Part shown: piece by piece, positions 13,213 through 57,314 of the stretch | Numbering within the stretch: position 1 is the stretch's first letter | How the letters are laid out: each line of letters begins with the position of its first letter | Assembly (NCBI GenBank): GCA_009602735.1 | Contig: WELA01001776.1 | Span: 62,001-126,000, forward strand | Length of the DNA: 64,000 bases | From: Mesotaenium endlicherianum | Lineage: Eukaryota | Reading direction: 5' to 3' | Made by a program: the position numbers and the translations under genes | Notes under the pieces: model-generated | What the model saw: only the letters and a program-made list of their open reading frames with translations | Databases searched by the model: none | Told to the model about the DNA's origin: nothing

Positions 13213-13231
13213 ACAAAGAAGACTGTGATAA

Positions 13232-13245
13232 CGGCCTTGATACCA
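13232..13245 (-). promoter_or_regulatory. Primer binding site (initiator tRNA-Met-like) of A2
   Basis: TGGTATCAAGGCC one base after the 5' LTR. A1 (20292-20303) and A3 (45030-45041) read TGGTATCGGAGC. Confidence 0.8.
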
Positions 13246-13246
13246 C

Positions 13247-13979
13247 TGAAATGAATCGACTTACCAAATAGGCAATTAACAATTAATAAAGATCTTTATA
13301 TCAGCAAGTAATCTTTATGGTATTTTTTGTTAACTGGTTAAACGACAAAGGACAACACACTAGCAGTAAATAATACTCGTAACTTAAATGCGAGTAAACT
13401 AGCACCAATCAAAGATTAGTAAACTCATACATTAGCAAGGTTAGAAGACAGTGCGTATCAATGGCTTCTCGCCTTGGATTCAGATCTCTCTCAGTAAGCT
13501 GTACCAGAGAGTTGGCCTCGTTTCCAAATGTCGAATTCAAGAGCAATGCCTAGCATATGTACATGGAATGAGTTTACTGTTCAACGGTCAGTGCAATGGC
13601 ACCGCCTACCCGGGAGTTAACCACGTTGGTAGGACTTCGATTAACCAAATCCACCGCCATCTCCCATCATCCCGAATAGCCATCCATCATAGGGATGTCA
13701 TCTGGCCATTCATCTAGCAGGTGGTACTTAGATGCATATCAAGGCAGTTCGCTGCTACCGAGCACGGANTACCGAGTACGGAAGTCAGCTGGCTGTCAAA
13801 GAATGTGTCAGCAAGCTGACTTAAGCTGACTTCAGCCTGCTGCTTCCGGCTGAGTCATTAAACTGATATTAAATATAAAGTCCACCAGACTGATTATTAA
13901 CTAGAGTTCAGCAGGCTCAACTTATTTAATTGTTATATTTAAATGAATATTATATCAACCAATATACTGATTCATTACA
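13247..13979 (-). repeat. 5' LTR of A2
   Basis: Direct repeat of 5157-5876 with TG..CA termini. Confidence 0.95.
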
Positions 13980-13984
13980 ATGAT

Positions 13985-16967: not shown

Positions 16968-17990
16968 TGCTGTTGAGATTGCTTCGCCTTCAAATAACAG
17001 TCTCGAGCCAGATGTCCAAGCTTGCTGCAAATATAGCAGGGTCCTCTCGGCTTGAGATTCTGTTGCCTGCTCTGGTACTGCACAAGTCCCAACTCCATAG
17101 GTACTGGACCTTGTCCACTCGTGCTTGGCGCTTGAGATCCAAAGTGTCGATACCTCCAAAGTTGTGGCTGCCCCACTGCTTGTGACTATACTCCACAGCG
17201 TCGACCCTCGTTGCCAATGCCATCATTTCTCCAAGACTGGTAGGGTCCTTGAGCGCCACTTCCTTGGCCACAGTTGGCTTGAGTCCCCTCTTGAACTTGT
17301 CCATCATCTCCAACTCGTGCATGGATGGGCATTGAAACACCAGCTCGTCGAAGCGCAAAACATACTCCTGAACGCTTCCTCGCTGACGAAGGCGCACCAA
17401 TAGATCTCGAGCGGTAGCCTCGGATGCAATAGGTTGAAATTGCCTCCTCAAGCCTTCGAAGAGCTGATCAACAGTAGCAAGAACTCCAGACAGCTGTTCT
17501 TCTCGTTCATACCAAGCTCTAGCACTCTTTTGCAGCAAAGTTATGACAAAGGCGACTTGCCTGTCGGGCGTGAGCGCGAAGTACTCCATAAATTTCTTCA
17601 CTCCAAAAATCCATTGATGAACAGGCGGCGATCCACGCTCTCCAGTATAAACTTCAGGCTTAGGCGCACGCACTCCTGATGCGGGTGGAATAACTGGTTG
17701 CACCACTGGGTTAACATGAATCGGTGGCACAACAGATGCAGGTGCCAAACTCGTCGAAGCGGCGTTCCCCATAACAACTCGCACCATTCTCTCCACCTCC
17801 GCGCGCATATTTTGTTAGAATTGGGTATAGACTTCTCCTCCAATTGCATTCGCCATTTGCCTTAGCATCGCCTGCATCTCTTATTGCTCTCTGGTCATTA
17901 TTGGTGCTGCCTGCTGCCCCGCGCGCTCAACATACTCGACATGTTTGCCTCCTCCAGCTGTCGACTGCGACTCCATAGTATAATATGCAA
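16946..17990 (-). pseudogene. gag: Element B gag with zinc knuckle, frameshifted
   Basis: 16990-17808 retrotransposon gag (LRQRGSVQEYVLRF, FKRGLK). CYICSKLGHLARDC in 16946-17176. The start position is approximate. Confidence 0.9.
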
Positions 17991-18013
17991 ACTAGCCCAG
18001 CTCCAATACCAGA

Positions 18014-18756
18014 TGAAAGGGGCAAGGTGCCCTAGTGGAAGCGTAGTGATTCACGAGGAAAGGAACAAGTTGCAATTATACTAGAGAGTGCAGCGGCATA
18101 TCACTAACAAAGTTTAGGAAAAATACTCAACATTTTGAGTAGCAAGAAACTGCTTACAAATGATGTAAGATGAAAGGCCTTGTCATTACAAACACGTAGA
18201 AATTTACAGAAGTGAAAACTGATAAGAAACAAAGAAGTTATGCCTATTTATAATTTTCTGCCTAAGTGCTCCTCTCTAGGAGGAAGCTACGGATTTTCTA
18301 AGTGTTTGTCAAATCGTCCCTTCCAGAATATTCGTGAGTAAGCTAGATCAGTCTAATCTGACGTGTCGGGCCGAATTGACGTCCACATACATGCATTGAC
18401 ATTACTAGAATATTCTGTCTTAGACGCGCTAGGTTAAACCGAAACTTCTAGGTAAATCGAGCTAGTCGGCACTCCGCGTCCGCCGAACTTACGTGAAGGT
18501 TCGAGTTCATTTTAACGGGCCAGATCGCTGGACGCTGTCGGTCAATCTGACGGTCGCGCTCACCGCGAATTAAGGACAGTCGTTAACCGACCTCAAAACT
18601 AATTAAACTTCAGAAATCCGTAACTCTCTCAATACTTGACCAAATTCGATGAACTTTATATCAAAATGACCACAAAAATGCACTCTACACTAATATACAA
18701 TCAAAATATACTTTCATGAAACTCAAAAATTCACTTTATGAACCTATGACCTTACA
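18014..18756 (-). repeat. 5' LTR of element B
   Basis: Direct repeat of 3783-4525. PBS TGGTATTGGAGC at 18000-18011. Confidence 0.95.
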
Positions 18757-18761
18757 TCTAT

Positions 18762-20270
18762 CATCCTCATAGTCACTAGACTGGATTGCTGACTGTTGCT
18801 GTCTTCTAAAGGCTGGTCTTTTCTCTTGACCTTTGGGAGGTGTTTAACTGGACACTGCTCTCTGAAGTGACCCGTATGCTAGCAATGGTAGCAAACAGAT
18901 TTTGCTGAGGCTGGTCTCCGCTTAGTCCTACCACCACCTCGTCCATAGCCGTCTTGGGAGAAACCACCTCTCCCTCTAAACTGCATAGAATTATACTCAT
19001 ACTCGTATTCATCACCCTGATCATCCTCAGCCTGGTCTCCTTCAATTGCATTGTAGGAACCGTGGGGCTTTTTGACAACCTTAGACAACAAAGCATTACT
19101 CTTCCGCTTGTGATTGAATTGCTGCTGATCCCAGGCATCAGCATCCTGGATCAAGTCAGCCAGTTTCTCATACTTTTTTTCAGCAAAATGACCTGAGACT
19201 TCGGCTTTTAAGCCAAACCTGAAGTATGCTATCCTATACCGCTCTGGCAAGTCTGGCTACCTCATCATGTTCTCCTAAAACTTTTGAGCAAGCTCAACAA
19301 CTGAATTGGTCTGCTTCAGTGTTAAGGAGATCATTGCATGGATAGCTTTCTCCTGCCGATTGATCACATCAAACTTCTCATGCAGTTTCTCGACAAACTC
19401 TACCCAAGTAGGGTCACCGAGTTGTTGAGCCTTACGCTCTCGTTTCCAATACAGCCTTCAGTCTGCTGCACTGCCTTTCAGTAAAGCACCTGTGTGCCTG
19501 ACCTTCTCGTAATCTTGCAATTCTGGGTAGTTCTCCAGCCACTGCTCAACATCAGCGAGAAACTTGATGAGGTAAGACTTTTTGTTCCCCTCAGGATCAT
19601 AATCCTGGGGAGGTTTAGGCTTCGGCTTACTAGGCCCTCTGCCACCATCACCTTCACCAGTGGTTTGAGAACTCAGTTGGTCTCTGTCCCGCAACAGAAA
19701 CATTATGATTCTCTTGTCCTCCTTTTGGGACTGATACATGCTCGCCATTTGCGATTGCATTTGCACAAACAATACTCCTAGATCCACATTTTGAGGTGGG
19801 AGTCTAGCAAATGCAGCAGTAGCAGTGGCATCCACTCGCTGAGTAGTGTCCTCAACAGTCCCTCTCGCTTTTGCAGCAGCAATTCCTGCCGCACTCAGCC
19901 GGTCACGAATTTCACCAAGAGGCACATTGAGTTATACAGCAGGAGGTGGGTTCAGAACATTGGCCCTTGCTGCCATACGTTCTTCGACAGCGCGCTCGTC
20001 CGCTGGCTGCCCTTTCCGCCGTTCTGTATCTTCAGCAGCTTTTGCTAATCGTTCGGCTTCTAGTCTAACTCTTTCCTCTTCAGCCTGCTGGGCTGCGACT
20101 GCAGCAATAGTAGCTGCCTCATTTGCAGCCTCTCTAGCTGCAGTATCTGCCACTGCTTCAGAATAGGTACGGGTTCCCGCTACATGGCTTTCCGCCTGGT
20201 TTTTGACATTCTCGTTATCCTGGTTCTCCATGTCTCGGGAGTTGCTAGTTTGAGACCTTGTCCTTACCAT
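18762..20270 (-). pseudogene. gag: A1 gag, disrupted
   Basis: Fragments 19932-20270, 19458-19925 and 18879-19250 are highly similar to A2 and A3 gag. Confidence 0.9.
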
Positions 20271-20304
20271 ACAAAGAAGATTGTGATAATTGCTCCGATA
20301 CCAC

Positions 20305-21019
20305 TGAAATGAATCGACTTACCAAGCAGGCGATCAACAATTAATAAAGATCTTTATATCAGCAAGTAATCTTTATGGTATTTTTCGTTAATTGAATTAA
20401 CAGCAAAGGACAACACACCAGCAGTGAACAATACTCGTAAGTCAAATGCAAGTAAACTAGCATCAATAATGCAATCAGTAAATTCACACATAAGCAAGGC
20501 TAGGAGACAGTGCGTATCAATGGCTTCTCGCCTTGGATTCAGATCTCTCTCAGTAAGTAGTACAAGAGAGTTGGCCTCGTTTCCGAATGCCGAACTCGAG
20601 AGCAATACCTAGCATATGTACATGGAATGAGTTTACTGTTCAACGGCCAGTGCGATGGCACCGCCTACCCGGGACTTAACCACGTTGGTAGGACCTCGGT
20701 TAACCAAATCCACCATCTCCCATCATCCCGAATCGCCATCCATCCTAAGGATGTCATCTGGCCATTCATCTAGCACACCACACTTAGGTGCATATCTAGA
20801 CAGTTCGCTGCTACAGAGTACGGAAGTCAGCTGGCTGGCAAAGAATGTGTCAGCAAGCTGACCTAGTAGACTTCAGCCTGCTGCCCCCGACTGAGTCATT
20901 AAACTGATTATTTTATAAAATCCAATAGACTCAATAATAACTAAAGTTCAGCAAGCTGAACTTATTTAACTATTATATTTAAATGAATATTATGTCAACC
21001 AATATACTAATTCATTACA
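20305..21019 (-). repeat. 5' LTR of A1
   Basis: Family A LTR sequence with TG..CA termini and adjacent PBS. Confidence 0.93.
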
Positions 21020-21039
21020 CTACTACACAAATTACTTAC

Positions 21040-21494
21040 TACTTTTGCTTATGTATAAGTTCATTGACTGCATTATTGATGCTCTTTTTTTGCATTGCCT
21101 CAGGAAAATTGCATATGTTAGTTGTGTTCTGCTTTTTTTTATTTAATGAGTTGATTAGAAAACACCATAAGGATTACTTAGTCACATAAAGCTCTTTATC
21201 AAATTGTATATTGCTTATTGGTAAGTCGATCCATGCAAGTAGGGAGGTCAAAAGTTCAATGTGATGCCTTTTGGTCTGACTAATGCTTCGCAACCTTCAT
21301 GGACGCCATAAATGACATTCTGATTACATTTTTGATGCTTGTTTACTTGATTTGATTATTTAAAATTGCTTACGTCAATTGTGTTATGCTTTGGCTTTTT
21401 AATAACTTAATCAATAACCACCATAAAAATTACATGGTGATGTGAACATCTTCACGAAATCCTTGTTCGCATATTGGTGAGTCGATTCATTTCA
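21040..21494 (+). mobile_element. Old family-A-like debris in the opposite orientation (two LTR-end fragments and a short RT fragment)
   Basis: ATTGGTAAGTCGATCCATGCA and ATTGGTGAGTCGATTCATTTCA resemble the family A LTR 3' end. 21254-21320 encodes [11 protein letters not shown]. Confidence 0.7.
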
Positions 21495-22575
21495 ACAGCT
21501 GACAAGTTTCAGTGCGGGACATCCTGCCCCTGCAATTACCGTTGCGTAGTATCGCTAAAATCCGTGCGAGCGTGCGAGCGTGTGGGCAATATCGCGTTGC
21601 TCGTTGAGTGTTGGTAGTCAAGTGCCTGCCACATTGCGGCCGTGTGGGGTTGCCAGGATTCAGCACCTGAGCGCCTAACATTTTGAATGCAATCGTGTAA
21701 TCACCGTCTGGCGCTGCGTCAATGCACAAACTTATGGACAATGGCAAGTTGCTCGTCGCGACTGCACCTACCATCCTATCAGGTGACGGCGTGCATACAA
21801 ATGTTGCACAGATGCCACGTGTCGGCGTGGCAATATCGGTTGAGAGCGCGGGTGCAAATGAGGCCGACATGCATTGTAGCTGACGGCACTGAATAGCGCA
21901 CAATGTCAAGAGTTCTCATCCTCGAACGCAACCAGCTCGTTGCTGATCGCGTCGTAACTCAATACATCCTCGCCACGTGTTAGAGCAGCGTCGACTGGCG
22001 CTACGACTGCAGTCTTTGCGGCGATGTCGCTCGTGCGCATTAGCCCAAAGTCGCTGCCGAGTCTCCGCGAGTCCGCTTGTGCTCGTGGTTGCTCTATTCC
22101 TGCAGGTAGACAACCTGCAGGTGCCCGACCTTGCCGTAGCACGTGCAGCATTTGGCTTGTCGTTTTGCGCGAAGATACTGTTCCAACGAGAGTGACCCAT
22201 CCTGCTGCAGACTTGGCAGTGGTTATCCTACGTAATGGCGGCCATAGAGATGCGGCTTGGGAGGTGCTGTGCTACTCCGTCGCAGCTCCTGGCGCACAAC
22301 AATGGACGCCAATCCGACGTGATCACTAATGTTGCTGCGTTCGGTTGCAAAACCGACTTTGTCTCTCCACGACTCTGTAGGCGTCACCCAACATGTACTT
22401 GACGCCAGCGCAACCGATGAGAGGTGCATGACTCTCTCTCTCAGGCGTGGCTCTATATCTTGTAGAAATATATTTGCGGCCTCACGATAAGTGTCGGAGC
22501 CCACTTCTCTACGTAGGTGGGTTAAGCAGCGGAACATCATGCAAATCGTCTCTCCCTTGCCGAGGAATAAGTGGT
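21495..22575 (-). mobile_element. Degenerate relic of a family-C element (gag region), left part
   Basis: MMFRCLTHLRREVGSDTYREAANIFLQDIEPRLRERVM and SNISDHVGLAS match element C gag (MMYRRLTHLRRDVGTVTDREPTEIFLRAVEPHLRERAM; SNISDRVGLAS). Confidence 0.8.
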
Positions 22576-22730
22576 TGAAATGAATTGTCTTACCAAATAG
22601 GCGATTGACAATTAATAAAGATCTTTATATCAACAAGTAATCTTTATGGTATTTTTCGTTAACTGGTTCAACGGCAAAAGGACAACACACTAGCAGTGAA
22701 CAACACTCTAGTCAAATGCGAGTAAATTAG

Positions 22731-22865
22731 TGTCGTGCAATAGGAGGTCGGATGCGTATCAATGACACAAGCAATGCATAATATGCAAGCAGGCTTTGCT
22801 GCAATGAAGTCTAAATACATGTGGCTTCATAGCCAAACGATAGTCACGCGTCAAATATTTTAATT
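22731..22865 (-). repeat. Element C repeat B2 (135 bp, element 3' terminus)
   Basis: Near-identical to 23795-23930. Confidence 0.92.
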
Positions 22866-23792
22866 CTGGAAGCACATCATGATCTTCAAGAGTAGTCCTA
22901 TATCAGGGGATATAAGCTGTGACTTTGCTCACCACTTGTGAAGTTCTTTTAGTGAGTGGAAACCAGCAAGGCTTGCTCTTCACAAGAGAGAGACTAAGTG
23001 GTCCTGAAAACACAAGAGATAAAAGTGTAAGCTTTACTGAAAATCTCTGTGACTTACAACTGGCATAATGGGACCTCTAAAAAGATGTTCCTCTAGGGAC
23101 ATCTCTAGCACTTATACTCCTCAAAACCCGGCGTCGTATGCGGCGGATCCAATGCATGTAGTCACTCTAGGAGGCTCTCCTATGTCCACTAATGTGTACA
23201 AGGCATGTACTAGCACTCCTATAGGCTAAGCATAACTCAAACCAATCAAAGCAAAGCACGTAAAATATGCTAAGTGTCTCTCATTGGTGGAGCTTCCCTT
23301 GGGTAGTTCTACCTAGACAACGCCTCAAAAGTGAATATGAAACTTGAGGAAGCTTCCTCTAGGAGTAGGTGATGCAATCACCAAGTTATAGCCTCAATGA
23401 TGCACTTATACTGTGGAAATGCAAGACTTATGTAGTCTAAAGGGCTCGCGGACTTGTGCGCACAAAGCTAGGGGTCCTTGGGGTCACGAATAGTCAACAT
23501 TGTCACCTTTGGGTGCATTGAGTCACAAGTTGGCCATTTGGTGTGATTCCGCTCGGTGCCGAAAGGAGTGCGGACTAGATCGCGTCTATCTCGCTCGATA
23601 ATTAACCAAATGACGCGAAACCGGTGCCATTCGGAAGATGCTTCAATGCACTACACTTTGGTGACTCGAAAATCTAGAGAAGGTCAACATATGGATGCGT
23701 AAAGTCAATGAAAAGTTGGTCTTCCTAGGTTGATGGTTCACACACGTAGAGCTTGGTTTTGTACGTCAACCTCGAGTTAATAAATCATGACA
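22866..23792 (-). repeat. Element C repeat A2 (~927 bp)
   Basis: Near-identical to 34875-35810. Confidence 0.93.
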
Positions 23793-23794
23793 GC

Positions 23795-23930
23795 TGTCGT
23801 GCGGTAGGAGGTCGGGTGCGTATCAATGACACAAGCAATGCATAATATGCAAGCAGGCTTTGCTGCAATGAAGTCTATAATACATGTGGCTTCATAGCCA
23901 AACGATAGTCACGAGTCAAATGTTTTAATT
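23795..23930 (-). repeat. Element C repeat B1 (136 bp), preceded in element sense by a G-rich PPT-like tract
   Basis: Copy of 22731-22865. GGGGGGGA at 23931-23938 on the minus strand. Confidence 0.92.
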
Positions 23931-23943
23931 TCCCCCCCAGCTC

Positions 23944-25755
23944 TCAGCCACAGGCTGATGGGCTGTGATCGCTGTCTAGAGCCAAAGCAGTGCAGTCGCT
24001 ACAAAACCGATCGCCAGCTGGCACGCGGGCCAACGGCAAGTCAAGGCAACCGATGTGGAAGTCGAGGTTGCAGCTGTCGCAGAGCAGCATGCTGACCTCC
24101 TGGCCGGGGCTGTGGCAAATATGGCAAGCCCAGTCCTTGGGCGACCTCGCGTCGCGGGGACGAATCTGCATGTCAAGGTTAGGAAGGTGGCATGGTCCAC
24201 AATTCTTTGTGTGGTCCTTGTGAAGACGGCCATCTGCGCCTTTCAGCTCTAGAACTCCTGACGCCAAGACACGCCTGACGCGTAGGATGACGGGCGAGCT
24301 GTTGGTGTCGAGGGTGTTCTTTGTCTGGCGTCGCAGGTAAACGAAGTCACCTGCGGAGAACTGCAACACCCGCGGGCAATAGGCTCCTCCATGGGTCATG
24401 GCATACCTCAGTGTGTCGCGGTGCTGAGCAATGCTGACGTTGTCCATGGCCATGGGCATCAGGCGTCGAAAGAGCTGTGCACGCTGCCCGATAAGAGCGC
24501 TCCACGTCTCGGGACTGTCCAAGTCCAAAAGGTTCTTGGCCACGGTCCTGGCTGCTGCGGGCAGGACTGGCTGTCGACCGTAGAGAAGGAAGTAGGGAGA
24601 ATGCGAGGCCAAGGAGGCCTACTTATTTAACCTGTACCCCATAGCCAACCATGGGAGGGCGTCGTCCCAGTGGGTGCTGTCGTGGGCCAGGCAGTACTTC
24701 CGCAACCCAAGCTTGACAGTCTGCACCATGCGCTCTACGAGGCCGTCAGCCTGGGGATGGTCGCGGGAGGTGGTGCGGTGATCGATCATCGAGCGCTCTA
24801 GCAGCTTTTGAAAGCTGCCCTGGAACTCTTTGCCTTGGTCGGTGAGGACCTCAGCGCAACCGCCAAAGCGGCTAAGGACGTGATCGAGGAAAGCCTGGGC
24901 AATCCCCTCACTGGCCTTGCTGGGCAACGGCACAAGCTCGATCCACTTGGACATGTGCTCAATCATCACCAAGACATAGAGGTTGCCTCGGCGAGACTTG
25001 GGCAGCTCCCCAGCCAAGTCGAGCGACCACCTGTAGAACAGCCCCTGGATAGGGAGAGGGCTGAGAGCGACGGTGCGGGCTGTGAAGCTCGAGCGCACCC
25101 GGTCGCAAAGTGTGCAGCTACTGACGACGTCGGCGACAACCTTAGTCATGCCGTGCCACCAGTACTCAGCTTGGAGGAGGCTGAGAGTGCGCTTAACACC
25201 GAAGTGTCCAAGCGTCTCGTGCACACGTCGCACCAGCTGGTTGCGTATAGCGGGCTCAGGGACCACCAGGACAGAGCCGTCCGCCATTACTCGCCGCATG
25301 CGCCCCTCCATGAAGACGAAGTCCGAGCTACGCTTGAGGACGCGGTCACGTTCGCGCGCACTAATGCCTGGGACCAGCTCCTTGGCCGTGACGTACTGCA
25401 GCACCGGGGTGTCGTCCCACACGTCCTCGGGCCCGCGCTGCCAATTGTCTTGCTCCTCAGCTGCTGCCAAGGCTAGTCGTCGAGTGGTAACAGTCACCAT
25501 GTCTAGGCTAGTGAGCCCTGCGGGCCGCACGTCGCCGTCAACGGTGAAGGCCAAGAATGCCGCTGCGTGCCAGGCCACTGGCTCATCCTCATCGTGGCGG
25601 GCTACCGTGAGGTCTCCCGAAGAGGGCAGCGGGTTGCGGCTGAGGCCGTCAGCGTCCAGGTTTGTCGACCCTGGACGATGATGCACGTCAAAGGTGTACT
25701 CCTGCAAGATGAGCGCCCACCGTGCGTAGTTGCCCGTCAGGCGCTCCGACGTCAT
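23944..25755 (-). pseudogene. Element C DDE integrase with C-terminal PHD finger (one in-frame stop at 24619)
   Basis: H-H-C-C (VHETLGHFG..CTLC), D (WSLDL), D (LTDQG), E (LVERM). C4HC3 PHD finger CHIC..CDSC..HIGC..CSDC at 23992-24126. Confidence 0.93.
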
Positions 25756-25758
25756 GAG

Positions 25759-27050
25759 TCACTTGAGTGGCTGATGGTCGGTGACCAAGCGGAAGTGGGT
25801 GTCGTAGAGATAGTGCCTGAAATGCACAATCGCCCATACTGCTGCCAGGCACTCCCCCTCATAGGAGCCGTAGTTGCCCTTGGCACGGTTGTTGCTGCGG
25901 TTGGCGTACGCCACCACATGCTTGAAGCCGTCATGCTCCTGTACCAGCACTGCTCCAAGCCCTGCCTGCGACCAGTCGGTGTGGAGGATGAAGGGCTTCT
26001 GATAGTCAGGACGCCGTAGTACTGGGGCGCTCACCAACAGCTCCTTGAGTTTGTCAAACGCTGCCTGCTGCTCTGGTCCCCATACGTAGGCAACGCCCTT
26101 GCGTAGCAAGTCGTTGAGCGGCTTGGCCAGCTCGCTGAACCCAGGCACAAAGCGGCGATAGTAGTTGGCAATGCCAAGGAAGGCCCTCAACTGCGAGAGG
26201 TCGGTCGGCGGCGGGATGCCTGTGATGGCCGAGATCTTGGCCAGCTGAGGAGCCAAACTACTGGAAGACAGAAGATGCCCGAGGTACTCCACCTCCCGGG
26301 TCCCAAAGGTGCACTTGCCTGGATGGCACTTGAGCCCAACGGCCTGCAAGCGGTCCAGAATTGTAGTGATATGCGCCACGTGCTCCTCAAACGTCTCACT
26401 GAAGACGAGCACGTCATCGATGTAGCACCGAGCAAAGGCGAGCCCTGCCAGCTCCTTATCCATGACTCGCTGGAAGGTGGCAGGAGCGTTCTTCAAGCCG
26501 AAGAGCATAGCCCTCCACTCGTAGAGACGCTGCGATCCCCAAAAAGTCGTCTTATGCTGGTCCTCCTTCGCAATGAGTATCTGGTTGAAGCCCTGCCTCA
26601 AATCCAGCACCGAGAACCAAGTACAAGCGCCGATGTCGTCGAAGATTTCGTGAGGGGTCGGCATAGGATATCTGTCCTGCTCAGTGACCTCGTTAAGCTT
26701 ACGATAGTCACCGCACATCCTCTTCTCAGACCAGTTGCCTGAGGCGTCCTTCTTAGTTGGCATGACTGTGGGCGCAGCGTAGGTGGAGGCAGACTCACGA
26801 ATGAGCTGACACTCTTCTAGCTTGCCTGTCTGCGTGCTGATCAGGTCGTCCTCAAAGCGACTGTAGCGGTAGCGCTTCTGGAAGATGGGCACGTCTGTCT
26901 GGAGGGGCATCCTCATAGGGTCGCCTGTGTAGCACCCAAGATCGTGCATGCCGCTGGCAAAGCTGGCACTGCGCCGTGCATCCAGCAATGCCGTTAGCTG
27001 AGCAGCCTGTGCCCTAGTGAGAGTCCCCCCCAGCTTCCAAGTAGGGACAG
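25759..27050 (-). pseudogene. Element C reverse transcriptase and RNase H
   Basis: RMCGDYRKLN, LDLRQGFNQI, FGLKNAPATFQR, YIDD, LHTDWS, VTDHQPL. Confidence 0.95.
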
Positions 27051-27479
27051 CTGGTGGTGGCTCCTGCGCTGCAGCTGGCGCCTCCTGCCCTGCTGCTGGC
27101 GCGATCTGTGTGTCTGCAGGCGTCACCTGTCCTGCAACTGGCTCCACTCGGCCTGCCTCAGGTGCCCTCTCCTCGGCAGCTGCTGCCATCTGCCCTGCAC
27201 CACCTGTAGGCGGCGGAGAGCGTGGAAAAAGAAACGGGGAACGAAACTCCCTGGGTTGCTGTGTGGACTCCTGTCTCCTCCTGCCCCCCCCCAGCAAACC
27301 AGAACGAGGACCAGGACAAGGCGCAGGCGGCTGCTGGGAAGCTGGACCCTCGCGTTGGGAATGCCAAGTCGTACCAGGCGGGGCGCGGCCGTCGTCGTCG
27401 GAATGTCAATCCATGGCGTCATAGAACTGGTCCATCTCAGGATGACGAGCCTGGGCGTAAAGGGGAGTCAGGGCCTGTG

Positions 27480-28430
27480 TTTGCAGGAGAAGCCACGTCA
27501 AGACGTTGGCATCAATAGCCTGGCCAAGGAGACGCACGCGGTTGACCTCGGTGATGCCGTCCACCTGTGTGAGGTGCGGAGGATAGCCCATCGCACGCTC
27601 CATCTCCATGGCACGGGCTCGTTGGAACATGCCAGTCTTGAGGTCAATGATCATGCCGCGCTGGTCGCCCACGTAGGCCGCGCTATCGTAGCGACTCACG
27701 AACGTAGGAAGCGCCCGCGTGACGTCGCGGAGGACCTCACACTGGGCCTGAGAAGGATGCGGAAGGGCGACCACGCGCTGGGCCTGGCGCGCCACGTCGA
27801 GGATGGAGTCAACGTTGCGCGTGTGGCGTGGATGTGCGGCCGCTAACGCCTCAAGCGTGCCTGGCATGGCCAGGTTGGTGAAATAGGCGCGCACACGATG
27901 CGCGAAGGAACCAATCTAAGCGGCGTCGATGACAGCCTCACGACCAACGTAGCTGCTGCAGAGGGCAAAGTCGGCGCTGACGTTGGGCTGCGAATCGTGG
28001 CGGACAGCCACGTTCTCCAACACCCAGGCGAGCGTGTGCGGCGGCTGGCGGTCCTCAACCATGTTGAGGACGCGGAGCAGGTGCCAGAACAAGGCCGTAC
28101 GCGGGTCACCAAGCGCGTTGCCCCGTCCCGCAATGGAGAAGCCCTGGCACTCCCAGCCAGCAATGATGAGGTCAATGGGCCCGAGGCGCGTGATGTGCTC
28201 GGCGGTAATGTTGCGGATGTCCATGGGCCAGTCAGTCTGGGCGCGGTAGAAGGCATGCTCAGGGAAGAGGTCTGGGAAACGCTCGTGGCATAAGGCCATC
28301 TGCCTGTGGGCGACCTGCTGCGCCTCGCCATCGGGGTCCACGTAGACGTAGCGACGTACAGGGATGCCAGCCTGCAGGGTGGCCAACAACCCTGTCGCAA
28401 TGACGGCAAAGAGTTTGACAAGGACAATGC
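27480..28430 (-). pseudogene. DNMT3-like C5-cytosine DNA methyltransferase domain within the element C polyprotein (one in-frame stop at 27916)
   Basis: Motifs in order: I (VLVKLFAVIATG), III (DIRNIT), IV (IDLIIAGWECQGFS), VI (VLENV), VIII (AHRVRAYFTN), IX (EMERAMGYPPHLT), X (RVRLLGQA). Same reading frame as RT and IN. Confidence 0.9.
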
Positions 28431-30399
28431 CGCCGGGACGCTTGTCGAGCTGTGCGGTGTAGATAGGCATAGGAAGGGGGCGACAGCCCAGGGCGGGATC
28501 GCCGGCCTGCGCTGGCGGTGGATAAGAGCGCAGCAGACTGTGCTGATGGGGCCCCATGCGGAGGGCCGTCACTGCAAGCTCTGCGTAGTGGCGAGTAAGT
28601 CAAGGAATGTGGTCGAGCAGCGGCTGCGGGCGAGCCGTGCGAGAATGTGCCTGATAAGTGCGCCAGCGCGCACGCGCGTCTTGCAAGGCCTCCTCGGGCA
28701 CTGGGCGGGCCAGAGCCTGCGCGTCGCGCACGCACTGCTGCTGCCACCGGTCCCTTGTCCTGTAGTCTGCGTGGTGTGAAGCGGCGTGGGCCAGCTGCTC
28801 TGTGGCGGTGCGCTGGGGCAGCTGGGAATGCTGATCAAAGTACGAACGCAGCCGCTCGCAAAGATCCGCCTGAAGGGGCACTGTGCAGACGGAGCGCTTG
28901 TCCCACTGTGCTGCCTGTCGAGGACGAACGAGCTGACGTGGGGCGAGTTGGACTCGCAGGCGCAGCGGCAAAAGAGATGGGAGTTGGACGTGCTCCCGCT
29001 GGTTGCGCTGCATGGGCCCTGCGCGTGTTGCGTGTGGATGAGGATGGAGGTCGCGGAGGCGCGTAGCGGTGCGGGCCACCTTATGAGGAGGTGACCCAGA
29101 CGGCCCGTCGCCGGCTATGTGACTGCGCGGGACGTTGGTAGGCCAGCCAGGCGGCGTGGGTATAATGCGTGGGCTACAGTGGTGGAGGAAGACTGTGCGT
29201 CATGCTCGCGGGGGCGGAGATTGCGCAGACCGTCATACGGCAGTGTGACTGAGCGTGGGCTCGTCTCGCGCAAAGGAGTGACCTCTCTCCCCTCGCGAAG
29301 AGGAGTGACCTCTTGTGCGTCCCTGTGAGTGTCGCGCAGAGGTGTGACCTCGCGTGTACGCCGGTCTAGGGGCAGAGTGCGACGTGCTTAGCGTAGAGCT
29401 GGCCCGGCGTAGGGGGAAGGACCTGTACGCCGAGGACCGAGGATGCTGGTCTTGGCCACTGTCTGATGCGCAGGTCCGGCACGCGGGTCGATAGCGGAGA
29501 AAGGTACCGTGGAGGCAGTGCTGGCGGAGGCGCAACCTGACCAGCCTGTGCTCAGGCTGTTGCCAGCGAACAAGTGTGTGACGTCACGGCACTCGTTGCT
29601 GGTCAAACAGTCGTGCTGTATCGGACGACTAGACCCGCCGGCGCATGGATGGGCTTGACGGAGATTAGCCGTGGTCTCTTGTGAGAGAGAACTAAAGCCG
29701 GGAGGCCCTGTAGGCTGGCGTCGGACGCGAGCTGTAGGCGTGGGCGGCAAAGGCTCTGCCGATGGCTGGGCTGCGGGCTCCTCTGCGGCCTCCTGGGACC
29801 ACTCTTGCCACTCCTCCTCCTCGCTGCTCAATGACGCGTCGTTGGACCTGCCTGGGAACGCTGCCTGCCTCATGGCCTCGTCCTCAGACGTGGTAGTGCG
29901 TGGCCATGAGTCGCCTGTCCTGTGCGACGGTGAGGATGAGGGCGACTGGGAGGCCATGCGGTACTGGATGGCGACCCCCACAGGCACGTCATGCCGTACG
30001 TGGACGTGTGATCTCAAGGAGGGTCCGCTCGTCGCAGGAGGCTGTGGCTGAGGTATGGCTGCTGCGGCTGTGGCTGCGTCATGAGCGTGAGCTGCAGCAG
30101 TAAGGGCAGCCGTGGCAACGGCGTGTGCCTCTACGGCGTCTGCCGCCATCTGACGCATCATGGCGTTATGCGCGGCGTAGATCCGCACTGTCTCCCTGGC
30201 TTGTGCGGCTAAAGCGTTAGCCTGCTCCTGGGGCGTGAGGTGGAGCTCAGCACCAGACAGCTCGGGATCCTCCTCCTGCGTCTCCAGTAAGTCGGCGCCA
30301 ACGGAGACCTCATCATCCTTGGCTCCCCCATTATCGGTCTGAACTACAGACCGATCGTCATCCAGCGCCATGAAGCCGTAGAGGGTGGACTCAGCTGAG

Positions 30400-30800
30400 C
30401 GATGATCCATGATGTCAAGTGGCACAGATGCAGTGCGGGTCCCCCCTGACTGCCAGTCGGGTCGATAGAAGACCCTCTCCACCCAGTTATCCATTGCGGC
30501 GCCAATAGGAAAGAGCACGTTCTGGCCAAGGAGCACGTCGAAGGTCTCGGAGCGAGTGACCAACGCATGCTGGTGGATGGTCGTCTCATCCGGAGTGCCG
30601 GGCCGAAAGGTGAAACGAAGGGCCAGCCGCGTGCGCCCGGTGACGGTCTTGGACGTGCCGGCAGCGGTGTTGATCCGCGTAGGCGAATCCTCTAAGTCGG
30701 CTGACGAGAGGCCCAGCTGGCGGAAGTAGCGCAGGCTGATGAGGACTGGCTGGGCGCCAGTGTCGAACATGATGCGCTGCGGAGCTTACGTGTTGACTAG
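30400..30800 (-). pseudogene. Element C aspartic protease
   Basis: MFDTGAQPVLIS active site and FDVLLGQNVL in ORF 29388-30770. Confidence 0.85.
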
Positions 30801-31367
30801 CACGATGCCCTGCGAATTATCCAAAAATGCAGCGTTAGACGTGCTGATCATGCTGCGCTCATGCGCAAGTCGCGCGGGTGCGAAGAGCACCGCGGCTGCC
30901 GCGTCTGATGCAGACCTGTTGTCAGAGGCGCGCTGGCTGGCCCTGCGCGCCTAGAGCAGTAGCTAGGTCGCCTGCCGTGTGGCCTCCATCGACACGCCAA
31001 GCTCAGCGAAGGAGACTGCGGGCATGCGGTGAAGCGCCAGCGAGATGACCTCGGCGCTGAGCTGCATCGTGGTCATCGACAAGGCTATCGCGTGAGGCGC
31101 GAAGGCCGCTGGCGCTGCTGGCGTGTCCAGCACGCGGAATGAGCGGGGCAGACGCGGCGCCTCCTCCGTGCGACGTCCCTGAACCGGCCCGGCGCGCTTC
31201 TGTGCCACCGCTGGGCGTCCGGCTGCCACCAAAGCGTGCTTGCGCCGTGCGCTGCCGTCTTCTGTGCGGCCTCCAAGTGGCACTGTGCGTGCGCAGCAAA
31301 CCAGAATGGGGCCGCACGCGGCTGCAGCAGCAGGCACAGCCGCTCGGACAGCCAGTACCTGAGCGGC

Positions 31368-31545
31368 TGGCACACCTAGCGCTGGCGTACCTGGCGCAGG
31401 TGCTCCCAGCGCGGATGCACCTGGCGCTGGCGCGTTCGGTGCAGGCGCACCTGGCGCTGGTGTACCTGGCGCTGGTGCTCCCAACGCGGATGCACCTGGC
31501 GCTGGCGCACCTGGCGCTGGCGCGTTCGGCGCAGGNCGCTGGCTC
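31368..31545. repeat. 15-bp coding minisatellite (GCACCTGGCGCTGGC-like, PAPGA units)
   Basis: Repeated GAPAP/GTPAP/NAPAP units. Contains an assembly N at 31536. Confidence 0.8.
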
Positions 31546-33297
31546 GGGTCCTCCAGCAGCTAGCGCCTCGGCAAACGCCGGTGCCTCCGTCGGGACGGCT
31601 GTCCATACCAGCGCCGCTTTGGCCGCAGGCGCTTCGGCTGCTGGTATGAACGCCGGAGCTGGCGCAGGCTTGGCTGCTGGCAATTTAACAAGTGGCGCTT
31701 CGAGGGCGCCGCTGGGCCTGCCAGGTCGCGTCGCCCGACCGGGGCCAGTGTCGGTATCGGCTGCCCTAGGCAAGGCACGTGGCGCCCTCCAGGTAGAGCG
31801 CGCGCTTGCCGGGACCCTCGCTACGCTTATCGCGCAGTTCCAAGGGTTTTGTGCGCAGCCAGGGTTTAAGCCTTGGCTGTGCGCAGCCGTGTGTGTGCTG
31901 TCGCAGCTCCAAACGAAGATACAACCGCACAGCGCGATTGGAGATGTCGCTCCCTGACTTGGGACGACAGTCGTGGCCGCCAGATTTGCGCTGGCTGAGC
32001 CGGACTGCGTGCGCGTGCCAAATGGCAGCACGTGTGCGCAAGTGCTGTACGCAGCGGCTGACGTGGCTGTCGTGAGGTGGTCGCGTGGCGGGCTGCTGAG
32101 CGAGCGTCGCAGTGCTGTGCGCGGCGTGTGCGAGCGTGTGTAGAGAGGCGCACATGTGAAGCTGCCGTCAGGCAAAGTCTCGCCAGCCGCGCACGCGTCA
32201 GGTGCGACGGCTGCTGGCGCGGCTGCCGGGACTGGCGCAGGGGCGGTCGCTGGGAGGCTGCCATGTGGCGCCTCCCAATTGATCTTGGGATTGCAGGGGC
32301 GCGTGGCCGATCCGGCTTCAAGGTCCGCGTCGGCTGCCTTGGACGCCGCCCGTGACGCCCTCCTTCTGGCGCGGGCGTACGCCGAGGCCCCCATAGCGCG
32401 AATTGCGTTGGCGCGGGGATTTTGGGCGCAGCCAGGGTTTAAGCCCTGGCTTTGCGCAGCCGTGAGCGTGCCGTCAGCGCTCCGCACGGCAATCTGGCCG
32501 CACAGCGCAATCAGGGATGCCCCCTCCTGACTAGGAATGGCGATCGCAGCCGCCGAATCTGCGCTGGCCGTGCCGGACTGCGTGCACGCGCCACGTGGAA
32601 GGACGTGTGCGCCGCTGGCGTGCGCAGCTGCTGCTGTGGCTGCCGAGCTGCGATCTTGTAGCTGGCTGCCCGGCAAGTTTTGCGCCGCCGTGCGAGGTGT
32701 GAGCGGACGCGTGAGCGCGCAAATGTGCGCGTGGCTGCCGGCAAGAGCGGCCTGGCCTGCCGAACATGTGGCAAGGGTCGGCGCGTGCTGGACCCTGCTG
32801 CTTGCAGCAGCCAGCAGGGTGAGACCCTCCTGGCGTTGCCGGCTGGTGCGCAGATCTGCGCACAGAATGGCGACGCGTATGGCAAGGGCCACGACAGCCG
32901 TGTGTGCTGCAGACGTGTCACTCAGCTGGCGAGCACGCCTTGTCGCGACAGCTGTCAACACGCAGACTGCTGGCAGCACTGCTGGCGTCAGCAGGACGGC
33001 ACAGGCCAGAGGGGCTGCCGAAGCCTGCGGCTGTGCTGGCGTGTGTGCCGGACCGTCTAGGGGCGCGTTGGGAGCTGCAGCGTCTATGACGCCGGGTAGC
33101 GAGATTGCGTGCGCCTGCAGCCTGCCATCTGGCAGCCCGACCGAACGAGCGTAGCGGCTGCTGACGAACATCAGCGCAGAGTGCGCAGGTCTGGCAGAAG
33201 CGTCTGCGCAGACGTCTGCGGCGCTGGTCGCCGTAGCTCTACCGTGGGGCGGGTGCGTGCGATGCTGCAACGTTGCTGTAGCGCCAGGTGCCAGCCT

Positions 33298-34740
33298 CTA
33301 AGGCTGCCACGTGTTGGCATCGTGAAAGTGCGCAGGAGCTGCGCAGACGCCAGCTGTCGGAGCTGAAGCGTCGGACGACGGGACGCGTGCGAAGAGGGCT
33401 CCGCACGCGTCGTAATTGTCGGTGGAGACAAGACCGCGGAGTCTGACGATCTTTGCGTTGGCCTCTACGAGGGCGTCGCTGACGTCGTCGAAACTGTAGT
33501 AATGAGCTCCGGGGGTCAGCGCGGCGTCCATCGTAGCCGAGGCTGCCGTCATCGGGGGACGTCCACCCGTGCGAGGGTTGCGCATGCCCCGAAGTCCTGC
33601 TGCTGGCGCAGGGCCGTCACGAGCACGCCCGTTCTCGACGTCGCGCTTCTTTTGCAGGCATACGATCTGCAGGTGGCCGGCCTTGCCACAGTAGGTACAG
33701 TCACTGGGCTTGCCATTCTGCACAATAGTGCAGTTCTGGCGAGAATGGCGCGTCTTCCCGCAAGACCAACAGGGGTCGCTTGTCGTGGCGGCCATGGAAA
33801 TGCGGCCATGCGGAGCCCCGCGCTGGTGGGTCTGCTGGGACAGCTGAGAGCGCTGGGGCTGCTGCTGCTGGGGTTGGCGAGCCGGAGTTGGGCACATCGT
33901 CGTGGATGGCAGCACCAAAGACTCCTGGCGAACGCCCGTGGATGCGAGGCCTACACGGTCGCTAATGTTGCTTCGTGCGGCGGCTAAGCTCTGCTTCTCG
34001 ACTGAGAGGTAAGCGTCCTCCAGCGAGTACTTGGAGCCGATGTGGTAGATGAGAGGAGCCATGGCTCGCTCCCTCAAATGTGGCTCTACGGCGCGCAAGA
34101 AGATCTCCGTTGGCTCCCGGTCAGTGACGGTGCCAACGTCTCGGCGAAGGTGCGTCAAGCGGCGGTACATCATGCGGATCATCTCATTCTTGCGGCGGAA
34201 GAAGTGGTGCAGCTCGTACACCTTCTCTTCGGTCGCGGCCTGGAACTCCTCCCTGAGGACGTCCCAGAAGGCCTTGACCGGGTCAGCGAGGGGGGGTCTC
34301 CACTGGGGGTTCTCCCACAGGCTGTGTGCGTGCATAGATCTCGTCACCCTTCAACGAAATGTGTCACGGGCCTCGTAAAGGAGATAGCGCATGAGCGTAT
34401 AGAACACGTCACGCTTAGTGAGCGCGGGCGTCTTAAGCCTCGCGGTCACGAACTCAGCCTCGAACTCTGAGATTGTGTCGTCCAGATCACAGGTTCCTGG
34501 TCTGCCGCTGAAGCGGAAGAGGGAGGACCTGTCAGCCTTGACCTCGTGGTCACCTGCCATGGGATACCAGGAATTGTGGTAAGCCCAATGGGAAGGCTGC
34601 TCAGGGACAATCACAGGGAGCACGAGTGCCGGCTGTTCCCCTTCAGAGGGTTCAATGACAGTACTGAGATCGGAGTCTGAGTCTTCTCCACTAACACCTT
34701 CGTAGTAAGGCTGGTAAGCACGCCCACTACGGGTAGGCAT
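33298..34740 (-). pseudogene. gag: Element C gag with two CCHC zinc knuckles (in-frame stop at 34351)
   Basis: MPTRSGRAY start. CWSCGKTRHSRQNC and CTYCGKAGHLQIVC. Confidence 0.88.
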
Positions 34741-34874
34741 ACGCTGAAGATTCTAATTGCGTGCAGGCAAAGAGAGATCTTTTTAGAAGTAAGAAGTGTG
34801 TACTCTCCAGAGTGAGCACCTCAAGACTGTAATCTGGTAGGAAAACAACTAATGAAGTCTGGCCCAAAAGATCA

Positions 34875-35810
34875 CTGGAAGCACATCATGATCTTCAAGA
34901 GTAGTCCTATGGCAGGGGATATAAGCTGTGACTTTGCTCACCACTTGTGAAGTTCCTCTAGTGAGTGGAAGCCAGCAAGGCTTGCTCTTCACAAGAGAGA
35001 GACTAAGTGGTCCTGAAAACACAAGAGATAAAAGTGTAAGCTTTACTGATAATCTCTGTGACTTACAACTGGCATAATGGGACCTCTAAAAAGATGTTCC
35101 TCTAGGGACATCTCTAGCACTTATACTCCTCAAAACCCGGCGTCGTATGCGGCGGATCCAATGCATGTAGTCACTCTAGGAGGCTCTCCTATGTCCACTA
35201 ATGTGTACAAGGCATGTACTAGCACTCCTATAGGCTAAGCATAATTCAAACCAATCAAAGCAAAGCACGTAAAATATGCTAAGTGTCTCTCATTGGTGGA
35301 GCTTCCCTTGGGTAGTTCTACCTAGACAGCGCCTCAAAAGTGAATATGAAACTTGAGGAAGCCTCCTCTAGAAGTAGGTGATGCAATCATCAAGTTATAG
35401 CCTCAATGATGCACTTATACTGTGGAAATGCAAGACTTATGTAGTCTAAAGGGCTTGCGGACTTGTGCGCACAAAGCTAGGGGTCCTTGGGGTCACGAAT
35501 AGTCAACATTGTCACCTTTGGGTGCATTGAGTCACAAGTTGGCCATTTGGTGTGATTNAGTGTGATTCCGCTCGGTGCCGAAAGGAGTGCGGACTAGATC
35601 GCGTCTATCTCGCTCGATAATTAACCAAATGACGCGAAACCGGTGCCATTCGGAAGATGCTTCGATGCACTACACTTTGGTGACTCGAAAATCTAGAGAA
35701 GGTCAACATATGGATGCGTAAAGTCAATGCAAAGTTGGTCTTCCTAGGTTGATGGTTCACTCACGTAGAGCTTGGTTTTGAACGTCAACCTCGACTTAAT
35801 AACCTAGACA
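34875..35810 (-). repeat. Element C repeat A1 (element 5' terminus)
   Basis: Copy of 22866-23792 with no adjacent B segment. Confidence 0.93.
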
Positions 35811-36407
35811 CTAGCATCAATAATGCAATCAGTAAAACTCATACATAAGCAAGGTTAGAAGACAGTGCGTATCAATGGCTTCTCGCCTTGGATTCAGATC
35901 TCTCTCAGTAAGCTGTACAAGAGAGTTGGCCTCGTTTCCGAATGCCGAACTCGAGAGTAATGCCTAGCATATGTACATGGAATGAGTTTACTGTTCAACG
36001 GCCAGTGCGATGACACCGCCTACCCGGGAGTTAACCACGTTGGTAGGACCTCGGTTAACCAAATCCACCGCNAGACCTCGGTTAACCAAATTTACCGCCA
36101 TCTCCCATCATCCCGAATTACCATCCATCATAGGGATGTCATCTGGCCATTCATCTAGCATATCACACTTAGATGCATATCGAGGCAGTTCGTTGCTACC
36201 GAGTACGGAAGTCAGCTGGTTGTCAAAGAATGTGTCAGCAAGCTGACTTAAGTTGACTTCAGCCTGCTGCTTCCGGCTGAGTCATTAAACTGATATTAAA
36301 TATGAAGTCTAGAAGGCTGATTAACAACTAGAATTCAATAGGCTGAACTTTAATAACTATTATATTTAAATGAATATTATATCTACTAATATACTGATTT
36401 CTTTACA
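35811..36407 (-). repeat. Remainder of the A3 3' LTR
   Basis: Resumes the family A LTR at CTAGCATCAA, ends TTTACA and is followed by the PPT complement. Confidence 0.93.
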
Positions 36408-36521
36408 ATCCCTCCAACTTAACTTGTTGTCGCCTCGACAACATTAATCTACAGAAGTCTTAAATAAGGGAACTGAACGTGACCAGCCTCTCCCACTAGT
36501 TGCCCCCTTTCAGCCTGTCAC

Positions 36522-39382: not shown

Positions 39383-39788
39383 TTTGCACATGTAATCAGG
39401 GCACAAGTTAGTAGAATATTGGCCTTTGTCCTAGAAGTTGCAGGAAGGGAGTAAGTTCGTAGTAGAATGGTGTATTTGTTCCTGTTTACCTTACAGGGTG
39501 CTTGCTAGGAGTTGACGTAGTTGCGATGCGCTAGACATAAACATATGAATGTGTTTACAAGTGTGGTCAGTGATGTATGGCTGTGCGAGGCCCTTTTTTT
39601 CCTTCAGCTAAAGGTGCTTTATGTAGGCCAGGCTGTCCCCTCTGTCACTATGTTGACACTTAGGGTTCACATAACTGTCCCTAACTATCCCTTTTTTGCT
39701 CTCGCACACTAACTGTCATATATTTTCCCCTCCGACTTAAATGGAGACAGGACCTCTTGTCACCTTCCCGTGTCAACTGAAATGACTG

Positions 39789-42700: not shown

Positions 42701-43699
42701 GTATATTAAATACGTCCGTATACTGAGCAACCATTTTTGCAGCAATAGGGTGCTTCGGAGGGCTTACCTTTTTCTCAACCACTTTTTCAAGTTGAGGAGG
42801 TACCTCTCTTAGCAGCAGACAGAACATTCTGTCTTCCTTCTGGTTCCGGCTTTTGACGAACTCCATTCCATTCAGCAACTTGCATCCTTCTGGAAGCCTC
42901 TTCTTTTCCTTCAGTTGCCATCCACACAGGACAAGAGGAAGAGCACTGGTGGGTGCCAAGTTAGTCTGCCCATCACTGGCTCCTCTCACTTTAACTGTAC
43001 CTCTGCTCCAACATACTTCAACTTGATGTCTATTAAGCGAGGACCTGCCTAGCACGAGATCATAAAAGCCAGTGTTGAGTACCTCAAATGTAAGCATTTC
43101 AGTTAGAACTGCGATGCCAGAACCTAACTGGACCTCAATAGGCTTGGTTATAACTACTCCCGGGATACTTGAGGCATCTCCGAGGAATATTTTTCTATTC
43201 CCCTGGGTGACAGTAGGCAGCCTTAGCCGCTTAACTAAGTCCTTATGGATAAAAGTATGTGACGCCCCTCCGTCAACAAATGCCCTCACCTTCCTACCTG
43301 CAATCATGCAATGCAGTAGGATAGGGGGGACTGTCTTTTCCTGACTTTCGCATTGTTCTCCTGACNNNNNNNNNNNNNNNNNNNNNNNNNNNNNNNNNNN
43401 NNNNNNAACATCAGGTGGAACAAGAGCATNAGAGTGTGCACTCTCTGGACGTCTATATTGCTGATGGTCTCCTTTATCTGGTTGTCAGGCATGCATAGTG
43501 AATCCAGTTCAGCAGGACCCATAATACCTGCTACGAGGGCAGCTAGTGACGACTCACTATCTCTAGCATCCTCACAGTCAGTAGACTGGATTACTGACTG
43601 TTGCTGTCTTTTAAAGGTTGGTCTTTTCTCTCGACCTTCGGAGGGTGCTTGTCTGGACACTGCTCTCTGAAGTGACCTGGCTATTGGCAATAGAAACAA
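39789..43699 (-). pseudogene. pol: A3 pol (PR-RT-RH-IN-chromodomain), disrupted
   Basis: ORFs 42126-43307, 41443-42117, 40444-41442 and 39789-40313 (GPY and chromodomain). Confidence 0.94.
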
Positions 43700-45008: not shown

Positions 45009-45042
45009 ACAAAGAAGACTGTGATAACTGCTCCGATACCAC

Positions 45043-45762: not shown

Positions 45763-45767
45763 GTGGT

Positions 45768-57282: not shown

Positions 57283-57314
<32 letters not shown>

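Follow-up and report, generated by a model that had tools for sequence, protein, structure and literature searches.

What a cytosine methyltransferase does inside the polyprotein of a retrotransposon is the question raised by a locus of Mesotaenium endlicherianum, where such a domain lies between the protease and the reverse transcriptase (RT) of a Gypsy element. The window, meaning the whole stretch of 64,000 nucleotides that was analysed, contains one such element. The reading that we favour, with moderate confidence, is that this is a decayed Gypsy-Dnmt3 copy and that in working copies the methyltransferase (DNMT) likely methylates the element's own new cDNA. The parts of this reading carry different weights: we are highly confident that the element belongs to the Gypsy-Dnmt3 (KnitGypsy-Dnmt3) kind, the family probably includes an active enzyme somewhere, as judged from residue conservation, and the proposal that the element's own cDNA would be its main substrate stands about even.

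The methyltransferase itself comprises the following features.

27445..28473, minus strand: DNMT3-like C5-cytosine methyltransferase domain, motifs I-X in canonical order, with a stop at 27916-18 and a degraded motif I
28419-28390, minus strand: motif I, VKLFAVIATG
28164-28135, minus strand: motif IV, IAGWECQGFS
28149-28147, minus strand: catalytic Cys codon
28026-28006, minus strand: motif VI, WVLENVA
27906-27874, minus strand: motif VIII, FAHRVRAYFTN
27609-27583, minus strand: motif IX, MEMERAMGY
27537-27511, minus strand: motif X, VRLLGQAID

The full ordered motif set that the preliminary description had claimed is thus present (I, IV, VI, VIII, IX and X), and the catalytic Cys is kept within WEC, as it had stated. 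The Pfam profile DNA_methylase, which had been proposed there as a check, gave a significant match of 41.2 bits (cut-off 22; E 1.8e-10) to the domain translated with an X at its single stop. The suggested resemblance to DNMT3 was also borne out: in a single-query phmmer search of PDB sequences, DNMT3A was the best match (1e-14) and DNMT3A/B/C made up the first 29 of 47, ahead of DNMT2 (5e-5), the best DRM-type sequence (4e-4) and M.HhaI (1e-3). A six-sequence family profile likewise placed DNMT3A (8e-25) before the best DRM-type match (2e-13). An AlphaFold model of the domain (mean pLDDT 67.5, pTM 0.74, with residues 221-287 poorly modelled) retrieved DNMT3 chains at the top of a Foldseek search (E 3e-13), and all 38 matches listed were DNMT3. 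Judged by these similarity ranks in sequence and fold searches, the domain is DNMT3-like. A DRM identity was rejected, as the motifs run from I to X and lack the circular rearrangement that places VI-X before I-V; the domain is intronless and unrearranged.

The domain is one part of a larger element, whose anatomy is as follows.

22731..35810, minus strand: whole element, very probably Gypsy-Dnmt3, 13,080 bp, ends TGTC...GACA
34791..35810, minus strand: repeat A1, whose left terminus is TG; it has TATAAG at 35125, and its transcript is predicted to start at 35095
34774..34787, minus strand: putative self-priming site, able to form 11 perfect pairs, or 14 if G-U is allowed, with the stretch that begins at 35095
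33298..34740, minus strand: Gag region, with Gag similarity to relatives, two CCHC zinc knuckles (33789-33652) and a frame change near 34353
30495..30776, minus strand: aspartic protease (MFDTGA), in a separate frame from the DNMT
25666..26889, minus strand: reverse transcriptase (YIDD) and RNase H, in the DNMT frame
24547..25293, minus strand: integrase (H2C2 zinc finger and rve DDE core)
23989..24138, minus strand: C-terminal PHD finger, with the Pol stop at 23944-46
23931..23945, minus strand: polypurine tract, immediately before repeat B1
23795..23930, minus strand: repeat B1, 136 bp, ends GACA
23789..23798, no strand assigned: B1-A2 internal junction, a 10-bp palindrome, GACAGCTGTC, in which two element termini are abutted with a 2-bp spacer
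22866..23792, minus strand: repeat A2, K2P 0.019 to A1, its B2 side about 80 bp shorter than in other copies
22731..22865, minus strand: repeat B2, right terminus, ends GACA

The features that define Gypsy-Dnmt3 elements are found here, namely a DNMT3 domain in Pol together with RT and RNase H, and the protease-RT-RNase H-integrase set with a DDE integrase. The zinc knuckles were identified by eye, whereas Pfam gave none, and the integrase C-terminus carries no chromodomain, only the PHD finger. The repeats are split in a DIRS-like order, A-coding-B-A-B (A1, gag-pol, polypurine tract, B1, GC, A2, B2); the end of A1 near 34791-34798 was set from joints in other copies. Membership of the DIRS or tyrosine-recombinase retrotransposons was nevertheless rejected, since an rve DDE integrase is present and none of the 10 ORFs scanned matched a tyrosine recombinase. 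The element lies within an LTR that belongs to another retrotransposon, where its insertion duplicated 4 bp of target (CTAG/CTAA); all four other copies of the target LTR within the window are uninterrupted at this site. The alignment of A1 with A2 shows 17 differences over 911 sites, and the insertion is therefore fairly young.

The linker between Gag and protease (31366-32713) is long: a 15-bp tandem repeat (APAPG) spans the N gap at 31536, a stretch of 515 bp is duplicated internally at 68% identity, and a frame change in this linker may be an assembly effect. With regard to the neighbourhood, the invaded LTR (22576-22730 plus 35810-36443) belongs to a chromodomain-bearing Gypsy family, and nested chromodomain-bearing Gypsy copies devoid of DNMT lie at 3-4536, 7895-13982, 18014-21019 and 39707-45765. 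A Gag relic at 22286-22575, 67% like the element's own Gag (33922-34208), comes from an older related copy. On the plus strand, 49742-60361 holds a spliced host gene with GT-AG introns for a very long coiled-coil protein made of repeats like ELEGKRRELLEHQVEL and alanine-rich spacers, for which no homolog was found among longer proteins; its best Atlas match was uninformative (score 0.88, with low recognition).

Whether the methyltransferase is truly a part of Pol depends on the reading frame. A single minus-strand frame, 29199 -> 23944, encodes DNMT, RT, RNase H, integrase and PHD, interrupted by five internal stops (28600-02, 27916-18 within the DNMT, 27406-08, 25759-61 and 24619-21). The shared frame broken by point stops that had been described therefore stands for these domains but not for the protease (30495-30776), which lies in another frame in this copy. 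This offset is attributed to a one-base length difference near 29158, seen in one contig from other copies (depth 879 of 1117). A programmed frameshift between protease and DNMT was rejected, as relatives have a single ORF and the contig shows the length difference.

Other ways for such a domain to reach this position would be nesting by chance, retrocopying of a host DNMT3 or an error of assembly, and the single-N gaps inside the element (31536 and 35558), in a region that is itself a nest of LTR elements, speak for some caution. These explanations are barely credible in view of the frame, which is continuous with RT, and of the domain, which is bounded neither by repeats nor by a target duplication, so that a nested insertion of the DNMT was rejected. 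Moreover, contigs of many diverged copies span the domain and unrelated assemblies show the same fusion. The decisive refutation comes from four relatives (P0163, P0165, P0170 and P0171) in which protease, DNMT and RT lie within one ORF each. The closest full relative, P0163, carries Gag-PR-DNMT-RT-RH-IN-PHD in one 2300-aa ORF and is 51% identical to the window over RT-RH-IN-PHD and 40% over the DNMT, which upholds the earlier view that the DNMT is a component of Pol.

This particular copy is dead, as seen from its stops, its frame change and the loss of the motif I glycine, a residue present in all 128 ungapped relatives. The contigs of other copies all differ from it at the damaged motif I codon (15 of 15 in X1 and 8 of 8 in X2). 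The copy retains the catalytic Cys, the motif VI Glu and both motif VIII Arg. Where the window and other copies differ in X1, A/T stands in the window for G/C at 478 places and G/C for A/T at 226, a bias of about two to one that would fit a methylated, decaying copy.

The read data show that the element is multi-copy, with many diverged copies in the same organism. Among the DNA-run contigs, one of depth 85 matches the flank 22000-22604 without a difference, and the summed contig depth over the DNMT bins reaches 15,000-36,000 in X1 and 9,000-22,000 in X2, values which do not translate into a copy number. Within 24000-28800, the RT-integrase part has roughly two to four times the summed depth of the DNMT part, in X1 as well as in X2; there may be related copies without a DNMT, or copies more diverged there.

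With regard to RNA, none of the listed runs contained the stretch, and 6-24% was read of each of three runs with the same species label. In all three, with no host-gene positive control, no RNA read was found over 27091-30142, which includes the DNMT; this is a weak negative. Repeat A is represented by a few reads, mostly diverged. The predicted start at 35095 does not show in the RNA: reads cross it, and read ends accumulate only at 23458, a position in repeat A that lies upstream of that start and at which 16 of them are stacked in run X21; these reads are mostly 90-99% alike and likely come from other copies. Within the integrase, dozens of reads from the three runs match about 40 bases at 25130-25170 and then continue into unrelated sequence, and they represent a short integrase-like piece inside another transcript.

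When 1.84 billion cluster representatives were searched with a profile of the family, 515 scored E<=1e-30. The best 150 of these 515 and earlier hits were analysed, giving 155 classified proteins after one phage-like match had been set aside. The alignment comprised 149 domains (six short ones removed), and residues were counted on the 144 rows other than the five seeds. In these 144 relatives the catalytic Cys and the motif VI Glu are invariant, and the two motif VIII Arg are found in 144 and 143. WEC, which the preliminary description had found unusual and whose status as family consensus it had left to be checked, is the commonest form of motif IV (71 of 149 rows, and 10 of the 15 rows in which the DNMT lies as in the window). 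It is for this reason not a sign of decay, and was rejected as a lesion of this copy.

The same replacement has a second possible meaning, namely that the domain was kept for binding and not for methyl transfer, as a DNA- or RNA-binding module or as a decoy for the partners of host DNMT3. The Pro that precedes the catalytic Cys is replaced by Glu in 89 of the 144 relatives and kept in only 46, the element is not depleted in CpG, and the Klebsormidium nitens domain was inactive in yeast in the experiments described in PMC5890265, all of which would suit a binding role. Nonetheless, there is almost no variation at the Cys, the Glu, the two Arg or the SAM-binding Gly, and WEC and WPC are intermixed in both architecture groups described below. 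Pseudo-enzymes such as DNMT3L, by comparison, lose catalytic residues. A binding-only role is accordingly considered improbable. By the alignment, the catalytic core is held across clusters less than 50% identical, which argues for an active enzyme in the family.

The relatives also differ in where the domain lies. In type A, assigned by hand, the DNMT follows the protease or precedes RT, and in type B it follows RT/RNase H or precedes integrase; 17 of the 155 proteins are type A (window included), 96 are type B and 42 were too short for the position to be read. The two types separate across one branch in DNMT trees that are unrooted and built without cellular DNMT3 (SH-aLRT 96 with all rows; 100/99 with 15 type A and 30 sampled type B rows). 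The K. nitens protein GAQ93235.1, a Gag-PR-DNMT that is 34% identical to the window over 329 aa, falls on the window's (PR-DNMT) side of the 100/99 split. Of the 30 clusters looked up, 7 have a species name. Six of them are type A, namely one of K. nitens and five of Closterium, and the seventh is of Scenedesmus sp. PABB004, so that the word chlorophyte for type B rests on one of 13 type B clusters. A K. nitens-like subgroup (P0148, P0134/P0198 and P0135/P0199) has FPC as motif IV, and four of its proteins end a few residues past the DNMT; RT may be in a separate ORF in this subgroup, in which case the DNMT-RT fusion would not be universal. In the RT tree, the window is nearest to P0163 without starred support, and two of its neighbours devoid of DNMT fall in the same group.

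A close viral or bacterial donor was not seen among the viral contigs and prokaryote genomes, in searches of low sensitivity. The viral contigs gave 31 loci, all partial (28-43% identity, E >= 6e-11) and none full length, and none of 245 candidate stretches in prokaryote genomes was confirmed. The metagenome scan yielded a single short locus (L001, 42% identical).

Granted an active enzyme, its substrate has to be considered. The Pol parts of Ty3/Gypsy polyproteins are packaged with Gag-Pol. The DNMT would then be packaged with RT and integrase as part of Gag-Pol, be cut free by the element's protease, and first meet the element's cDNA, to which it would add de novo 5mC before or during integration, probably in the CG context as DNMT3s do. 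The new copy would arrive premarked, with the possible benefits of passing as host DNA, of protection from editing or of setting its chromatin. Methylation of the cDNA is favoured because this is the first DNA that a packaged DNMT would encounter; it was also proposed for DIRS elements by de Mendoza et al. (PMC5890265, Discussion), who report that SymbioDIRS-Dnmt3 domains carry out de novo CG methylation in yeast. KnitGypsy-Dnmt3, the only Gypsy-Dnmt3 domain with a published assay, gave no methylation there, a result called inconclusive by the authors; human DNMT3B also failed in this assay (PMC5890265).

The base composition counts to some extent against this reading. The coding DNA of the element (23944-34740) has 59-68% GC and a CpG observed/expected ratio of 0.78-1.02, and is not depleted, in contrast to 0.45-0.48 in the neighbouring LTR elements devoid of DNMT (46% GC) and 0.45-0.49 when the host gene is included; a loss of CpG might be anticipated in an element that kept methylating its own CG sites. 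The high GC and CpG possibly reflect a recent arrival from a GC-rich host, or a selection for CpG.

An active enzyme could also work mainly on host DNA, either at the target site and nearby chromatin through a tether formed by integrase and PHD, or on other copies in trans. Pol terminates in a PHD finger in the present element and in the majority of complete relatives, and where the position of the DNMT could be read, 96 of 113 relatives have it directly before integrase, with which it would stay in the integration complex. We regard this as unlikely, given that the DNMT of the present element adjoins RT and not integrase, and that the K. nitens methylome, as presented in PMC5890265, is land-plant-like despite such elements. 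Methylation of the element's own cDNA remains the favoured role.

The cDNA in question might take an unusual form. A1 is not followed by a tRNA primer site, the scan of the window gave no tRNA gene, and no Rfam match was found within 22000-36500. Directly after A1, 34787-34777 pairs perfectly with 35095-35085 over 11 bases (14 with G-U, -15.1 kcal/mol). The arm of this pairing in A begins 30 nt past a TATA-like box, one of only two found in A by scan, and 38 of 2000 dinucleotide shuffles reach >=11 pairs anywhere in A. By analogy, this would be the self-priming pattern of the Tf1 type, in which the RNA of the element would prime its own reverse transcription. A primer site after A and a polypurine tract before B would yield a [B-A]-coding-[B-A] cDNA with ends lacking TG...CA, as the TG and CA ends are internal to the repeat and abutted in the palindrome (CA-GC-TG). 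Closure of this cDNA would give a 2-LTR circle, and integrase, by opening the circle at the internal CA-GC-TG palindrome, would produce exactly A-coding-B-A-B.

The joints in other copies bear on this scheme. One form of the A-B joint predominates (depth 1518 in X1 and 1831 in X2), next to several minor ones with deletions and filler (depth 76-246), about 80 bp being absent from the joint here; such a variable joint fits end-joined circles. Furthermore, matches stop at the B end, 23795, in 7 contigs (X10, mixed flanks) and 9 reads (X18), and at the A start, 23792, in 7 reads (X18), and both are therefore real termini of other insertions. Taken together, the candidate self-priming site, the palindromic junction and the variable A-B joint suggest, at the level of sequence, an integration from a 2-LTR circle.

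Among known systems, the closest is KnitGypsy-Dnmt3, for which a retrotransposon-borne DNMT was indeed published, so that the precedent invoked in the preliminary description is real: de Mendoza et al. (2018, PMC5890265) describe in K. nitens a Gypsy element with Dnmt3-related domains in its Pol ORF and repeats as in a DIRS retrotransposon. Both elements have an intronless, unrearranged DNMT3-like domain in a Gypsy Pol and combine DIRS-like split repeats with Gypsy domains (Fig. 4c legend), and GAQ93235.1 shares the Gag-PR-DNMT order and groups with the window's DNMT. They differ in sequence (only 34% identical) and in motif IV, FPC in K. nitens and WEC here. The C-terminal PHD finger is absent from the main text of that paper, whose available text proposes no replication mechanism, and the copies here far exceed the number it implies for K. 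nitens. The capture of a DNMT3 by a Gypsy element, the repeat layout included, is already published, and the present copy is a further, distant member.

SymbioDIRS-Dnmt3 of Symbiodinium, as portrayed in PMC5890265, also has a DNMT3 in Pol, the A-coding-B-A-B layout and two coexisting domain orders, but uses a tyrosine recombinase, whereas the element here encodes a protease and a DDE integrase and is flanked by 4 bp of duplicated target. Cellular DNMT3s (human DNMT3A/B and the moss PpDNMT3b discussed in PMC6453930) share the catalytic sequence, fold and canonical motif order; the element's domain, about 23% identical, has neither PWWP nor ADD nor introns, has W-E-C as motif IV and is part of a polyprotein. 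EpiLTRs/DAM-LTRs, as outlined in bioRxiv 10.64898/2026.05.21.726589, are likewise LTR retrotransposons with methyltransferase and chromatin-reader domains, yet their DNMT is sister to DNMT4 and is accompanied by DAM and a chromodomain; their authors treat the streptophyte Gypsy-DNMT3 as a distinct capture. Later papers still give streptophytes as the range of Gypsy-Dnmt3, and an opinion paper states that these elements are not in land plants such as tracheophytes.

Among the papers found in a literature search for which subscription journals lay mostly outside, none dealt with a circle mechanism, with WEC as motif IV or with the other position of the domain in Pol. Similarly, no wider survey of such elements was found, no title on a split-repeat Gypsy with integrase and PHD appeared in the best 20 of 137, and no paper joining DNMT, Gypsy, Scenedesmus, retrotransposon and methyltransferase was found in a search mostly outside subscription papers, theses and Repbase reports. 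Beyond the print found, the DNMT of relatives occurs at two Pol positions (PR-DNMT-RT and RH-DNMT-IN) that are cleanly split on the tree, and the second, with its one named chlorophyte cluster, extends the published streptophyte range. In addition, the many intact natural WEC and WPC domains make activity and substrate testable beyond a single construct that failed in yeast.

With regard to replication, the DDE enzyme of IS3-family circle junctions acts on abutted ends. The self-priming Tf1/Sushi and Tcn1 chromoviruses (PMC6317226) resemble the present element, as far as that source describes them, in lacking a tRNA primer site and in having a short site after the 5' repeat that pairs with the RNA start, a pairing that is predicted here; the element differs from them by a PHD finger in place of a chromodomain, by its split repeats and by its DNMT cargo. 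Foamy virus integrase is reported to cleave palindromic LTR-LTR circle junctions (PMC1180852), and in foamy virus as in HIV-1 (PMC1905944) the likeness lies in a DDE enzyme meeting an abutted TG...CA palindrome. The palindrome of the present element differs in being encoded by the repeat, and it would be the normal attachment site and not a by-product of end-joining. The repeat anatomy thereby offers a testable circle-based integration route for a DDE integrase. Tentatively, and as a combination that we consider rather doubtful as a whole, Gypsy-Dnmt3 may be a large, old green-lineage clade with a single captured DNMT3 that occupies either of two places in Pol (PR-DNMT-RT in streptophytes and RH-DNMT-IN in chlorophytes), self-primed, with a 2-LTR circle that would be methylated by the DNMT3 and opened at the internal palindrome by a retroviral-type integrase. 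If true, this would be an LTR retrotransposon that normally uses a circle-junction substrate, long deemed a dead end in retroviruses.
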